DNA of 32,000 nucleotides. It comes from Candidatus Saganbacteria bacterium (GTDB lineage Bacteria; Margulisbacteria; WOR-1; JAKLHX01). This document shows, one piece after another, positions 13,958 to 19,907 of the stretch. The notes under the pieces are model-generated. The model was not told where the DNA came from. It was given only the letters and a program-made list of their open reading frames with translations, and did no database searches. The first letter of the stretch is position 1. Each line of letters starts with the position of its first letter. Both the position numbers and the translations under genes were made by a program. Location: assembly GCA_026387835.1 (NCBI GenBank), contig JAPLKZ010000010.1, positions 326,379 through 358,378 on the forward strand, read 5' to 3'.

Positions 13958-14452
13958 CTAAATATTGTTGTTTTTGTCTGCGCGCGAATGCAATCGCGAG
14001 ATCGTTTCCTGTAGCGTTCCCATCGGGCATATCACGCACCAGCTTCTCGGTTTATAGATCGCTCCGACAATAGTCCCTAATACAGTTGTTAATATACACA
14101 TTGATATAAAAGCCGCTCCTATGGTGATCCAGTTCCCTCCCGTTCTAATGATAATTGATATCAAATACCCAATTAATAGAACAAATACCGACCATCTGAA
14201 CCATTTCTTTGAGAATATTCCGGGCAAATTATTCTTCCGGCTGAAGAACGGGACAACAATTTCCAGAAAAGATCCGCGCGGGCATAAGAACCAGCACCAG
14301 TATCTTTTTTTGAAGAATGAAAGAGCTGAAAAGAATATTATCATGCCAAGGACCAGATAGCCGATCACGGGCCATATAAGGCCGCCGATCAAGATGATAG
14401 GTAAAAGCCATATCATTATTAATTGCGATGTTTTATATTTAGCGGTAACCAT
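13958..14452 (-). CDS. Small polytopic membrane protein with two WCx3CPxG motifs (NapH/Fer4_5-like)
   Basis: Roughly four hydrophobic segments. It carries RYWCWFLCPRGS and RSWCVICPMGT, the half-ferredoxin motifs typical of NapH/NosR-type membrane proteins. Its ATG directly follows the thiF TAA. Confidence 0.45.
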   Translation of the reverse strand: MVTAKYKTSQLIMIWLLPIILIGGLIWPVIGYLVLGMIIFFSALSFFKKRYWCWFLCPRGSFLEIVVPFFSRKNNLPGIFSKKWFRWSVFVLLIGYLISIIIRTGGNWITIGAAFISMCILTTVLGTIVGAIYKPRSWCVICPMGTLQETISRLHSRADKNNNI

Positions 14453-15064
14453 TTATTTTCCCTTCAATACTTGTTCGAGCGCCACGGAAGCCATCAGCGC
14501 CGCGCATGCTATCACCCTCGGGGCCAAAGGGGGGGTTTCTTTTCCGGCATATGTTTCCTCATCTCCGACTATATAGACGTTTTTTCTGGCTTTCCTGATC
14601 TTGATATGCGTCTCATTTTTTATGCCCGCCATACCGCTCCCCATGATCAGGATCTTGTCTGTATTTCCGAAGCTCTCAAGGAATAGTTTCTTTGACTGAG
14701 CATTATCAAAAGCTTCGAAAATAACATCTCTGTCTTTGTAGTATTCTAAAATATTGCTTCTGTCGAGATGGATCTTTTTTGCCTTTATCTTTGCGTCGGG
14801 ATTTATAAGGAGTATTTTCTTCGCTGTTGTATCGACTTTAGAGGCCCCTATCTCGCCGAGAAAATAATTCTGCCTGTTAAGATTGCTTGCTTCAATGACG
14901 TCCTCATCAATGATCTCAAAGTCCTTGAACCCTGACCTTACTATGGCATTGGCTATATTTGAACCTAACCCTCCGCAACCCGCAATGCCAATCTTTGTCT
15001 TTTGAATGATGCCGAGCTGTTCTTTTGTAAAGTATTTTAGTAGCCCTTTTTCAAATTCGTTCAT
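14453..15064 (-). CDS. thiF: ThiF-family sulfur-carrier adenylyltransferase (short form, 203 aa)
   Basis: IGIAGCGGLGSNIANAIVRSGF nucleotide-binding loop and DEDVIEASNLNRQ. There is no rhodanese domain. Confidence 0.8.
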   Translation of the reverse strand: MNEFEKGLLKYFTKEQLGIIQKTKIGIAGCGGLGSNIANAIVRSGFKDFEIIDEDVIEASNLNRQNYFLGEIGASKVDTTAKKILLINPDAKIKAKKIHLDRSNILEYYKDRDVIFEAFDNAQSKKLFLESFGNTDKILIMGSGMAGIKNETHIKIRKARKNVYIVGDEETYAGKETPPLAPRVIACAALMASVALEQVLKGK

Positions 15065-15265
15065 TTACCCGCCCCCGACAAAAGATATTATTTCGATCTT
15101 GTCGTTCTCGTTCAAATAAGTCTTGCCCCATTCTTCACCTTTAAGGATCTTCCCGTTGTGCTCGATAACGGCTCTCGCGGAGTCGAGTTTGTGCATGCTT
15201 GCCAGATACCTGATGTTCACGGACCGGGGAGTTTCTTTTTCTTCGCCGTTTACTATAATCTTCAT
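15065..15265 (-). CDS. thiS: ThiS-like sulfur carrier protein ending in GG
   Basis: 66 aa of the form MKIIVNGEE...NDKIEIISFVGGG-stop, matching the ubiquitin-like ThiS/MoaD pattern. The C-terminal Gly-Gly is already exposed. Confidence 0.8.
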   Translation of the reverse strand: MKIIVNGEEKETPRSVNIRYLASMHKLDSARAVIEHNGKILKGEEWGKTYLNENDKIEIISFVGGG

Positions 15266-15876
15266 TTTTCTCCTCCGTTTTTCCGCGACAGCACGAACAG
15301 TCCTGTTGTTGCGAACATGTTGGGAAAAATGAAGGCTTTTTTCTTTTCCCCGATAAATATCTTTCTTTCAATGTTTATCCTGTTCTTTTTGCAGAAATCG
15401 ATAAAATCATATATCGTCAAGAATCTCACGTTCGGTGTTTCGAACCATTTATAAGGGAGTGATGCTGTGACCGGCATCCTTCCTCTTAAAACAAGCTGTA
15501 ATCTTGATTTATAGTAGGCGAAATTCGGGATCCCTACGATGACCTTATTGCCCACCCTGATAGCGTCGTCAAGGACCTTTTCCACGTGCGCTACCTGCTG
15601 GAGACTCTGGTTAAGTATGACGTAGTCGAACGATTTATCCCTGTATTCAGAGAGGCCTGAATCGATGTCGCCGTGAAAAACGCTCAGCCCTTTTTCAACG
15701 CACTCCCGGACAGCTTTTTCGTCGATCTCTATGCCGACGATCCTGGCCTTTTTTTCCTGTTCAAGCAGCTGCATCAGCTCGCCTGGGCCGCATCCGAGAT
15801 CAAGGATGCTTGTCCTTGCATCTACGATCTCAAGTATCTGCCTGTGGTCCGGCCTTAGTTTCCCCCAGTCGATCAT
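15262..15876 (-). CDS. metW: Methionine biosynthesis protein MetW
   Basis: ILDLGCGPGELMQLL SAM-methyltransferase-like motif and FDYVILNQSLQ. It sits immediately downstream of metX, as in other metXW pairs. Confidence 0.85.
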   Translation of the reverse strand: MIDWGKLRPDHRQILEIVDARTSILDLGCGPGELMQLLEQEKKARIVGIEIDEKAVRECVEKGLSVFHGDIDSGLSEYRDKSFDYVILNQSLQQVAHVEKVLDDAIRVGNKVIVGIPNFAYYKSRLQLVLRGRMPVTASLPYKWFETPNVRFLTIYDFIDFCKKNRINIERKIFIGEKKKAFIFPNMFATTGLFVLSRKNGGEK

Positions 15877-15877
15877 G

Positions 15878-17962: not shown

Positions 17963-19255
17963 TTAAGCTTTGTTTAATGCCTGGTCAATATCTTCTATTA
18001 TATCCTCAACATTTTCTATCCCAACAGACAGCCTGATAAAATCGGGCGTTACCCCGGTCGCAAGCTGCTCCTCGCTTGAAAGCTGCTGATGGGTCGTCGT
18101 GGCCGGGTGTATCGCAAGGGTCTTCGCATCCCCGACATTGGCAAGATGCGAAACCAGCTTTAGAGAGTTGATGAACTTTTTGCCGGCCTCAAGCCCCCCT
18201 TTTATTCCGAACCCGATTATCGCTCCCGCACCTTTTTTTAGATATTTTTTTGCCCTTTCTCTTTCTGGGCTTGAGTCGAGTCCCGGATAATTGACCCAAG
18301 ATACTTTGTTGTTACACTCAAGATGTTTTGCGACCGCAAGCGCGTTCTCGCTATGCCTGATCATCCGCAGATGCAACGTCTCCAGGCCCTGGATAAACAG
18401 GAACGAATTGAACGGCGATGGCGCCGGGCCCAGATCACGCAGAAGCGTGACCCTGGCTTTTATAATGTAGGCAATATTGCCCATTGGTTTCAGGGCCTCG
18501 ACAAAGTTTATCCCGTGATAGCTTGGGTCCGGATCGGCAATCAGGGGGAACTTTCCGTTCGTCCAGTCGAATTTTCCAGAGTCTACTATGACTCCGCCGA
18601 GCGACGTACCGTGACCCCCTATGAATTTTGTCGCCGAATAGACGACTATATCGACTCCGTGCTCGATCGGCCTCAATAAATATGGGGACACGGTGTTGTC
18701 AAGAATGAACGGGACCCCGTTTTCGTGAGCTACTTTTGCAATAGCTTCCAGATCGGCCACATCCAGTTTCGGGTTGCCGATGGATTCGGCATAAACTGCC
18801 TTTGTCTTCGGGGTGATCGCTTCTTTCAATGCCTTGATATCGTTCGATTTTACGAACTTCACTTTTATGCCGAACTTGGGGAACGTATAATGAAAAAGAT
18901 TGTAGGTGCCCCCGTAAAGATTATCGGCAGAAACTATCTCGTCCCCGGCTTGCGCTATGTTCAAAAGGGCCAGCGTTATCGCCGATTGTCCGCTTGACAG
19001 CGCGAGTGCGCCGACCCCTCCGTCGAGCAACGCCATTCTTTTTTCAAAAACGTCCGTCGTCGGGTTCATCAGCCTTACATATATATTGCCGAACTCCTTC
19101 AGCGCAAATAAATTGGCAGCATGATCGGTTGATTTGAACTGATAGGATGTGGTCTGGTATATAGGCACGGCTCTTGAACCTGTTGTCGGATCCGCTTCCT
19201 GTCCCCCGTGTAATAATACCGTTTCGAGTCTTATCTTTTTTCCCTCATTTGTCAT
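17963..19255 (-). CDS. metY: O-acetylhomoserine sulfhydrylase (PLP-dependent)
   Basis: Cys/Met-metabolism PLP family: [11 protein letters not shown] (PLP-Lys), [11 protein letters not shown], and a typical length of 430 aa. Confidence 0.85.
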
Positions 19256-19389
19256 CTTTGTTCTCCTTTATTTTTTTGCCGGTCCTTTAGGCCTTGTTTT
19301 TCCCAAGCCTAAGAGGACCCGCTTTTAATTTTGCTTAGACTGGTTTTTCCCGACACGCATACCGTCATCGTCCATAGGTCCACCTCCTT

Positions 19390-19827
19390 TTATATAAAGT
19401 AATTTGTCCCCTTGCTTTTTAACTGGTTTTTTTCAATAAGGTCCTGTAATGTAATCCCGGACAGGTATTTTTTTATGTTTTGTGCCATCCCGTCCCACAC
19501 GTCCATTGTCACGCATTGAAGGGCCCTTTTGCATGAATCGGGATCGTCAACACAATCGACAAAATTGATTGGCCCCTCGAGTAATGATACGATTTCTTCC
19601 AAATTTATCTTTGCCGGCTTTTTTGCCAAAATATAGCCGCCCTTTGAGCCGCGGATCGAATTTACCAGCCCCGCATTTTTAAGCGGCGGGATAAGCTGCC
19701 ATAAATATTTTTCCGAGATCTCCTGTCTTTTTGATATGTCCTTCAATAAGGCCGGCCCCTGGCCGAAATGGAGCGCCAGATCGAGCATTAACCTCACTCC
19801 ATATCTCCCTTTTGTAGACAGCTTCAT
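19390..19827 (-). CDS. Rrf2-family transcriptional regulator with a three-Cys cluster motif
   Basis: MKLSTKGRYGVRLMLDLA wHTH, then SIRGSKGGYILAK and CVDDPDSCKRALQC (C-x6-C-x5-C). Confidence 0.85.
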   Translation of the reverse strand: MKLSTKGRYGVRLMLDLALHFGQGPALLKDISKRQEISEKYLWQLIPPLKNAGLVNSIRGSKGGYILAKKPAKINLEEIVSLLEGPINFVDCVDDPDSCKRALQCVTMDVWDGMAQNIKKYLSGITLQDLIEKNQLKSKGTNYFI

Positions 19828-19878
19828 AAATAAAACCTCGGATAATCTATCTCTACTAATTCTATCGCATTACTAGAC

Positions 19879-19907
19879 ATTATACTTGCATTTAATTTCC
19901 CTGTCAA
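19879..19907 (-). promoter_or_regulatory. Consensus sigma70 promoter for the Rrf2 / met-cys operon
   Basis: On the minus strand: TTGACA, a 17-nt spacer, then TATAAT. Both hexamers are perfect. A leader of about 45 nt with a GAGG SD follows. Confidence 0.6.

Follow-up and report, generated by a model that had tools for sequence, protein, structure and literature searches.

What is a thiazole-type sulfur carrier doing among the genes for cysteine and methionine synthesis? The question is raised by a 32,000-nucleotide stretch of a Candidatus Saganbacteria genome (contig JAPLKZ010000010.1, positions 326,379–358,378; the whole stretch is referred to here as the window, and window coordinates are counted from its first base), in which the genes for the small carrier ThiS and its adenylyltransferase ThiF lie immediately downstream of metY, cysK, metX and metW. 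The best explanation is that this is a sulfur-amino-acid operon into which a thiazole-type ThiS/ThiF pair was recruited. As to the role of the pair, we tentatively propose that ThiS thiocarboxylate (ThiS-COSH) acts as the sulfur donor for CysK and/or MetY; this is the best single explanation that gene context offers, and we rate its probability at a little below even.

Organization of the operon

The open reading frame (ORF) list of the window contains eight minus-strand genes in the order Rrf2, metY-cysK-metX-metW-thiS-thiF-Fer4_5. The Rrf2-family regulator gene (19390–19827; 145 aa, PF02082, 135 bits) is followed by metY, encoding a 430-aa O-acetylhomoserine (OAH) sulfhydrylase (17963–19255; TIGR01326, 674 bits, above cut-off), cysK, encoding a 308-aa O-acetylserine sulfhydrylase of the A type (17021–17947; TIGR01139, 468 bits against a cut-off of 351), metX, for a 378-aa homoserine O-acetyltransferase (15878–17014; NF001209, 511 bits, above cut-off), and metW, for its 204-aa partner (15262–15876; TIGR02081, 231 bits, above cut-off). 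The carrier gene thiS (15065–15265) encodes 66 residues ending in FVGGG-stop (TIGR01683, 62 bits, cut-off 37), thiF (14453–15064) a 203-aa ThiS adenylyltransferase of the short thiF_fam2 type (NF006395, 230 bits, cut-off 159), and the last gene (13958–14452, with an alternative start at 14416) a NapH-like Fer4_5 membrane protein with four predicted helices (PF12801, matched over two stretches). Coordinates and junction sequences give intergenic gaps of 15, 6, 1, -4, 0 and 0 nt from metY to the Fer4_5 gene; metW and thiS are joined by a 4-nt ATGA overlap, and the sequence TAAATG forms both the thiS/thiF and the thiF/Fer4_5 junctions.

A sigma-70-type promoter, TTGACA-17-TATAAT (19879–19907, minus strand, with TTGACA at 19907–19902), was read directly from the sequence 5' of the Rrf2 gene; a scan of 7.7 kb (12800–20500) gave no other 12/12 promoter match and no excess of terminator-like sites. 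Neither Pfam searches of all sizeable ORFs nor phmmer searches with the ThiE, ThiG and ThiH proteins of a relative identify a thiamine gene in the 32-kb window. A preliminary description, made from the sequence alone, had reported seven tightly packed ORFs with these gaps behind an Rrf2 gene and a perfect promoter, with no thiamine gene in the 32 kb; all of this is borne out, and its family assignments are upheld by Pfam and NCBIfam, most of them above curated cut-offs.

Conservation of the carrier genes beside cysK and metY

Neighbourhoods of ThiF homologues from several collections were compared, and 11 distinct architectures – the window and 10 relatives, with ThiF identities of 58–70% – keep thiS-thiF beside cysK and/or metY. 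The pair follows metW in five of these. L103 (Rrf2-metY-cysK-metX-metW-thiS-thiF-CBS-CGL) and L110 (Rrf2-metY-cysK-metX-metW-thiS-thiF-bioB and beyond) have the gene order of the window through thiF, L092 (metX-metW-thiS-thiF-Fer4_5) is on a contig that starts within metX, and in L109 (metY-cysK-metX-metW-DUF1805-thiS-thiF-GATase) a DUF1805 gene separates metW from the pair. Another five loci have thiS-thiF directly after cysK: L104 (Rrf2-metY-cysK-thiS-thiF) and L108 (metY-cysK-thiS-thiF-Rrf2) include metY, L106 has Rrf2-cysK-thiS-thiF, and L107 (Rrf2-cysK-thiS-thiF-GATase) and L008 (Rrf2-cysK-thiS-thiF-Fer4_5-GATase) have additional genes 3' of thiF. In L111 the two sets of genes are interleaved as metY-thiS-cysK-thiF. 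Overall, metY accompanies the carrier and its E1-like enzyme in 8 of the 11 loci, the window and seven of the 10 relatives (L103, L104, L108, L109, L110 and L111, with the L092 contig starting within metX), and an Rrf2 gene flanks the operon in nine. Pfam searches find no thiG, thiH, thiE or Thi4 gene within 10 kb in any of the 11.

In L008, L106, L107 and L109, synteny with the window extends over one or both flanks, so that in these related organisms the operon occupies one and the same place in the chromosome. What stays constant is a core of cysK-thiS-thiF, in most cases accompanied by metY and an Rrf2 gene, and some lineages have metX-metW inserted. The broader linkage of the preliminary description, of thiS-thiF with the sulfhydrylase genes, is thus conserved across the 11 architectures, but metY-thiS-thiF-Fer4_5 is not conserved as a unit. 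We also note that a class I glutamine amidotransferase (GATase) or peptidase C26-like protein is encoded 3' of thiF in L008 (9034–9795), L107 (10603–11268) and L109 (10603–11277), and is absent from the window.

A separate clade of ThiF proteins

In a neighbour-joining tree of 174 ThiFs, 10 of the 11 Cys/Met-linked proteins fall in one 47-member clade, with the L111 ThiF outside; the tree has no support values, and the clade is therefore a working result. Eight of these 10 had been labelled before the tree was made, and the other two, P0037 (L109) and P0051 (L110), were looked up later as a test and are both Cys/Met-linked. Among the best 120 matches of ThiG and of ThiH there are none on the contig of any clade member, including the 364-kb contig of the window and the 793-kb contig of L104. 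An adjacent 18-member clade is of a different kind, in that 14 of its 18 members have thiG/thiH on the same contig or locus, with thiS-thiG-thiH-thiF operons. The residue directly after the SNLNRQ motif is asparagine (Asn66) in 100% of the Cys/Met clade and Tyr or Phe in the thiG-linked ThiFs, and Thr80 of the Cys/Met clade corresponds to Leu in the thiG-linked proteins.

Two other loci have comparable arrangements and ThiFs that lie outside the 47-member clade, namely cysK-PLP enzyme-thiS-thiF-cysPTWA in L065 (Lentisphaerota; PLP, pyridoxal phosphate) and metY-thiS-thiF in L071 (Spirochaetia). Together with L111, these indicate that such wiring arose more than once, and also beyond Margulisbacteria. 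A broad profile search of genome contigs with the ThiF alignment gave at least 600 matches (best 52% identity), with no Margulisbacteria among the matches listed; thiS-thiG-thiH-thiF(-thiE) is present in 46 of 80 thiF_fam2 loci from this search, and in a further two, situated at the edge of a contig, only thiH-thiF is seen. Further ThiF homologues, at 57–63% identity, belong to classical thiamine operons in L010, L094 and L105, that of L010 (Saganbacteria, 5500–11247) having the order thiE-thiS-thiG-thiH-thiF; a tmRNA gene (11245–11656) is next to this L010 region. The thiamine operons of L040 and L016 are preceded by thiamine pyrophosphate (TPP) riboswitches, those of the Margulis type are not, and riboswitches therefore do not distinguish the regulation of the two contexts.

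Relationships of the carrier, adenylyltransferase and sulfhydrylases

The only PDB matches to ThiS at E≤1 are the ThiS proteins 2K5P and 1TYG, and a ThiS sequence signature that would split the thiamine from the Cys/Met context was sought and not found. ThiF carries PF00899 only and has no rhodanese domain (MoeZ model NF005902, 50 bits against a cut-off of 647); it falls just under the cut-off of TIGR02354 (147 against 152 bits) and is 100% identical to MCX5749736.1 from a Candidatus Saganbacteria metagenome-assembled genome (MAG). Its Cys187 is invariant, and the Zn-binding CxxC motif is absent. The preliminary description had treated a 203-aa, rhodanese-less ThiF as a distinguishing trait, but this is the usual form of the thiF_fam2/PRK08644 family.

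The window CysK scores below the cut-off of the cysM models (TIGR01138, 302 against 394 bits), and its best relative of solved structure is Mycobacterium tuberculosis CysK1 (2Q3B, 435 bits), with no CysM-labelled entry in the top 60. For MetY the best solved relative is the Thermotoga maritima enzyme (7KB0, 612 bits), and the Wolinella MetY (3RI6) scores 294 bits.

Comparison with known sulfur carrier systems

The arrangement is reminiscent of the CysO-CysM-MoeZ-Mec+ system of M. tuberculosis, in which CysO-thiocarboxylate is used by CysM and release of cysteine from the carrier depends on the JAMM enzyme Mec+ (PMC3227635). Both encode a ubiquitin-fold carrier ending in Gly-Gly and an E1-like adenylyltransferase with a PALP-fold sulfhydrylase, and the chemistry proposed here, attack of a thiocarboxylate on PLP-aminoacrylate, would be shared. 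The differences are that the window carrier is a 66-aa ThiS rather than one of the ~90-aa CysO/MoaD-like type, its 203-aa E1 has no rhodanese domain whereas MoeZ is rhodanese-fused, its sulfhydrylase is CysK1-like and not of the O-phosphoserine-using CysM type, and no JAMM protein is encoded in the window, either by Pfam or by phmmer with the L106 JAB protein against all ORFs of at least 40 aa. From the ThiS terminus, VGGG-stop, the preliminary description had concluded that a JAMM protease would be unnecessary for exposing the Gly-Gly. This end is indeed already exposed, but Mec+ has the additional activity of hydrolysing the CysO-cysteine adduct (PMC3227635), and far from being an advantage, the lack of a JAMM leaves a gap in the mechanism.

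A second point of comparison is the HcyS-HcyF-HcyD-MetY system of Wolinella succinogenes, in which metY is likewise encoded with a carrier and an activating enzyme and HcyD hydrolyses the HcyS adduct, as Mec+ does for CysO. Wolinella MetY uses a protein thiocarboxylate (PMC8191291; PMC5764234), and formation of homocysteine from OAH and a thiocarboxylate would be common to both systems. Unlike the Wolinella cluster, the window has neither a HcyD-type JAMM nor a sulfite reductase, its carrier already ends in GGG, and its MetY is much closer to the T. maritima enzyme than to that of Wolinella. A Wolinella-type cluster, with JAB, sulfite reductase, a 92-aa ThiS and a 271-aa ThiF, does exist separately in L106, within a larger group of genes beside cysK-thiS-thiF (10734–19158) that includes Rrf2, 3'-phosphoadenosine-5'-phosphosulfate (PAPS) reductase, a PHO4 permease, the JAB protease, sulfite reductase, a 372-aa ThiS::CysK fusion, TusA, a second PALP enzyme, DUF454, the 92-aa ThiS, the 271-aa ThiF and a NIL-domain protein. 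The ThiS::CysK fusion with JAB and sulfite reductase indicates that carrier-dependent cysteine synthesis is present in this lineage. The 92-aa carrier has no match in the window when used as a phmmer query.

The proteins themselves are closest to the ThiS/ThiF pairs (thiF_fam2) of thiamine operons, which match the same curated models, have the same FVGGG end and share all conserved ThiS residues; between the window ThiF and the thiG-linked ThiFs of its phylum the identity is 57–65%. The window proteins differ from these in having no thiG, thiH or thiE nearby, in the window and in all 10 relatives, in belonging to the separate Asn66/Thr80 clade, and in their partnership with cysK, metY, metXW and Rrf2 genes. 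JAB-less ThiS/ThiF pairs beside cysteine synthase or OAH sulfhydrylase were described by Iyer, Burroughs and Aravind in 2006 in Pelobacter, Pelodictyon and Chlorobium (PMC1779556). Those cases are isolated and some include ThiG, whereas the loci described here constitute a diversified Margulisbacteria/Saganbacteria clade with 11 architectures, no ThiG nearby and, in some, a NapH-like partner. With a linkage that is conserved and specific to a clade, the present loci are thus more than the scattered cases on record since 2006, although the principle is already familiar to specialists.

A model for sulfur delivery and its alternatives

Beyond the gene assignments, we infer the following scheme. 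The Rrf2 protein, which probably bears an Fe-S cluster, would control transcription from the sigma-70 promoter, and OAH would be made by MetX with MetW. ThiF would adenylate Gly66 of ThiS, and the acyl-adenylate would be converted to ThiS-COSH by sulfide or by persulfide from the nearby NifS, possibly through Cys187 of ThiF. Sulfur would then pass from ThiS-COSH to the PLP-bound aminoacrylate and vinylglycine intermediates of CysK and/or MetY, yielding cysteine and homocysteine, so that the whole would constitute an ATP-driven, protein-bound supply of sulfide, similar to those that rely on CysO and HcyS. With no JAMM in the operon, the product could be freed by thioester hydrolysis before an S-to-N shift, by local release of sulfide, or through a hydrolase encoded elsewhere; in some relatives the Cys-dependent GATase/C26-like amidohydrolase is a candidate to replace the JAMM. 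The NapH-like Fer4_5 protein may, speculatively, supply the electrons with which an acyl-persulfide or disulfide intermediate is reduced. As to the source of persulfide, the window contains a second Rrf2 gene in an Rrf2-nifS-nifU-mnmA-nadA cluster (24083–28071, plus strand), 4.3 kb from the Rrf2 gene of the operon, and its nifS cysteine desulfurase gene (24535–25698, plus strand; PF00266, 324 bits) can be assigned to the system only as a candidate donor. In L093 (5990–10624) thiS-thiF is directly downstream of nifS-nifU-mnmA, an arrangement that links the carrier to the cysteine desulfurase machinery.

A role in sulfur-amino-acid synthesis is consistent with the way thiS-thiF is embedded in, or interleaved with, the Cys/Met genes, with the translational coupling, with the separate ThiF clade and with control by Rrf2, and the suggestion of the preliminary description that the carrier serves MetY, CysK or both is strengthened by the conserved, clade-specific linkage. 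It is weakened by the lack of a JAMM, by the conventional nature of ThiS, CysK and MetY, and by the opposite reading given in 2006, and these points, together with those that follow, weigh against ThiS-COSH as donor to either sulfhydrylase. Several of them fit instead an ordinary thiazole carrier that provides ThiS-COSH to a ThiG or Thi4 encoded elsewhere, with its position among Cys/Met genes reflecting sulfur source and co-regulation under sulfur limitation, an explanation that we consider rather unlikely. ThiS and ThiF pass the NCBI equivalog models (TIGR01683, NF006395), and ThiS retains every residue conserved in 50 thiamine-operon ThiS sequences. In sequence, the nearest relatives are the sulfide-using CysK1 for CysK and the T. 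maritima enzyme, a user of bisulfide, for MetY, and all three proteins, ThiS included, look like ordinary thiazole-type or sulfide-using forms. None of the 11 runs of cysK/metY-thiS-thiF genes includes a JAMM or other obvious hydrolase; the sole JAB belongs to the separate L106 cluster 2.3 kb downstream, which gives L106 a dedicated carrier system in addition to the short pair. The absence of JAMM is a property of all thiamine-type operons, and the 2006 survey assigned JAB-less ThiS operons to the thiamine/molybdenum cofactor type and JAB-containing ones to the sulfur-assimilation type, interpreting associations such as these as cysteine feeding ThiS (PMC1779556). Thiamine operons of relatives also abut cysK or met genes: that of L010 runs into cysK, HcyBio (DUF39) and a NIL/ferredoxin gene, as in the methanogen-type homocysteine pathway, that of L040 (Omnitrophota, 3459–11646) consists of a TPP riboswitch and thiE-thiS-thiG-thiH-thiF followed by Rrf2-metY-cysK-metX-metW in the order of the window, and a convergent cysK lies beside thiamine operons in L014, L018, L021, L022, L029 and L096. 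Adjacency may therefore reflect the feeding of cysteine or sulfide to ThiS. Thi4 genes, moreover, cluster with ThiS/ThiF/CysK/NifS in genomes without ThiG (preprint, bioRxiv 10.1101/2025.09.23.678117), so that even absence of thiG would not rule out a thiamine role. Arguing the other way are the consistent lack of thiG, thiH, thiE and Thi4 within 10 kb across 11 architectures, the lack of ThiG and ThiH on the window and L104 contigs among the best 120 matches, the ThiF clade with fixed Asn66 apart from thiG-linked ThiFs of the same phylum, and the fact that thiS-thiF is embedded or interleaved among the Cys/Met genes (L103, L111) and not appended to them.

There are two further explanations. 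One ThiS/ThiF pair could be a general-purpose carrier, serving thiazole synthesis, tRNA or cofactor thiolation and possibly cysteine or homocysteine synthesis, with its position simply tracking sulfur genes, much as Thermus TtuB/TtuC is one carrier pair serving several acceptors. Related ThiFs do occur in three contexts (thiamine operons, Cys/Met operons, and after nifS-nifU-mnmA in L093), and no two ThiF types are seen on one contig or, among the minority of proteins that carry an accession, in one NCBI MAG. However, the clean split of clades by context argues for specialization, and no TtuA/NcsA-type acceptor enzyme is encoded near any locus examined; we regard this explanation as improbable. 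It seems more doubtful still that the partnership is reversed, so that the CysK-type PLP enzyme is not the acceptor but the source of sulfur, working as a cysteine desulfhydrase or generating persulfide for the thiocarboxylation of ThiS-AMP. This would account for cysK being the most constant neighbour of thiF, including next to the thiamine-type operons of Omnitrophota, Planctomycetota and Saganbacteria; the short ThiF lacks a rhodanese domain to donate sulfur, and PALP-fold desulfhydrases exist, such as that of the NCBIfam Cds1 model. But the window CysK is far above the cysteine synthase A cut-off and scores only 85 bits for Cds1, the MetX, MetW and MetY genes of the operon point to biosynthesis, and a NifS desulfurase is available 5 kb away.

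If the pair does feed CysK and/or MetY, carrier-based delivery would extend past the two characterized cases, to a thiazole-type ThiS and to the little-known phyla Margulisbacteria/Saganbacteria, Lentisphaerota and Spirochaetota, and a JAMM hydrolase would not be obligatory. Annotation of such pairs as thiamine genes would then inflate predicted vitamin B1 prototrophy and hide a variant of the Cys/Met pathway, and the Asn66 clade would be a simple marker separating the two uses of ThiF. A more specific version, which we think unlikely, is a JAMM-independent route in which an ordinary ThiS and an Asn66-clade ThiF supply conventional CysK and MetY enzymes, with release unlike that of CysO and HcyS and with the NapH-like Fe-S protein linking charging to the membrane redox pool in some lineages; it would add a third and widespread form of carrier-dependent synthesis of cysteine and homocysteine, among anaerobes from several phyla. 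Should the pair be a thiamine carrier and nothing more, the operon would be a tidy case of supply-chain gene clustering.

The Fer4_5 membrane protein

The Fer4_5 protein has two predicted cytoplasmic cysteine motifs, CWFLCP and CVICP, and no ferredoxin domain. The four cysteines are invariant or near-invariant in an alignment of 49 family members, with the motifs (R)xWCxxxCP and RxWCxxCP; most members have a C-terminal 2x[4Fe-4S] ferredoxin domain, before which the window protein ends. It resembles the NapH/MauN quinol dehydrogenase subunits in its four-helix membrane domain with two cytoplasmic CX3CP-type motifs and differs from them in not being encoded with nap or mau genes; 41 of the 49 family members match NapH/MauN weakly, and the window protein scores 20 bits with TIGR02163 (cut-off 213), so it is not a full-length match. 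The family is small (485 representatives at E≤1e-3 among 1.84 billion), there is no sequence homologue in the PDB, and a single-sequence structure model is unreliable (predicted local distance difference test, pLDDT, 65; predicted template modelling score, pTM, 0.41; cysteine motifs below 50).

The preliminary description had presented this protein as coupled to thiF. It does adjoin thiF and has the cysteine motifs, but whether the junction is 0 nt depends on which start codon is taken: the conserved N-terminus corresponds to Met13 (14416), where other gene callers also begin the gene, and this leaves a gap of 36 nt after thiF. The gene adjoins thiF in only three of the 11 loci (the window, L008 and L092). 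We considered it as an integral part of the system and rejected this, as it is missing from the other eight related loci; it is treated here as a lineage-specific accessory.

The Rrf2 regulator and the leader region

The best NCBIfam model for the Rrf2 protein is CymR (NF047409), at 145 bits under a cut-off of 195, so it does not qualify as a CymR equivalog. It contains a Cx6Cx5C motif typical of cluster-binding Rrf2 proteins, also present in L103 and missing from the L008 Rrf2, and from its sequence the regulator is probably of the Fe-S type; Bacillus subtilis CymR is not known to carry this motif. The 134-nt Rrf2-metY spacer is predicted by folding to contain a stable 45-nt RNA hairpin (19278–19322, minus strand), and the 146-nt segment spanning it (19250–19395) has a minimum free energy of -36.1 kcal/mol (z = -2.9 relative to shuffled sequences). 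The hairpin is followed by an A-run and not a U-run, and is thus not a canonical terminator. No Rfam family matches the window at its gathering score, and none matches the promoter and leader region, including the hairpin, at E≤1. The Rrf2-metY spacer of L110 is only 17 nt, and the hairpin element is therefore not universal.

Other genes of the window

Several features lie around the operon. A 261-aa ORF (13016–13801, minus strand) is located 156 nt downstream of it on the same strand with no terminator between; it contains a partial FGE-sulfatase domain, has weak matches to SenA, OvoA and PvdO (enzymes that form C-S or C-Se bonds, or related enzymes), and is not conserved in L008. On the other side, a PCC/DUF296 gene (19949–20367, minus strand) is frameshifted, with residues 1–104 encoded at 20056–20367 and the last 41 at 19949–20071. 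The second-frame part is 73% identical to an intact 140-aa protein of L008, and independent Logan assemblies likewise call a 105-aa product, so the frameshift may reflect genuine pseudogene formation and not a mistake in assembly. Farther left on the plus strand (3025–7465 and 7777–12960) there is an operon for a group 3b (sulfhydrogenase-type) NiFe hydrogenase with its maturation protease, and two class II ribonucleotide reductase paralogues around nrdR, the second with a TSCPD domain, followed by cobO. The rest of the window is ordinary chromosome, with genes for an H+-pyrophosphatase, nth, iPGM and gyrA among others. Finally, a 413-aa ORF without a Pfam match (21051–22292, minus strand) is conserved in a contig of the same species (L001).

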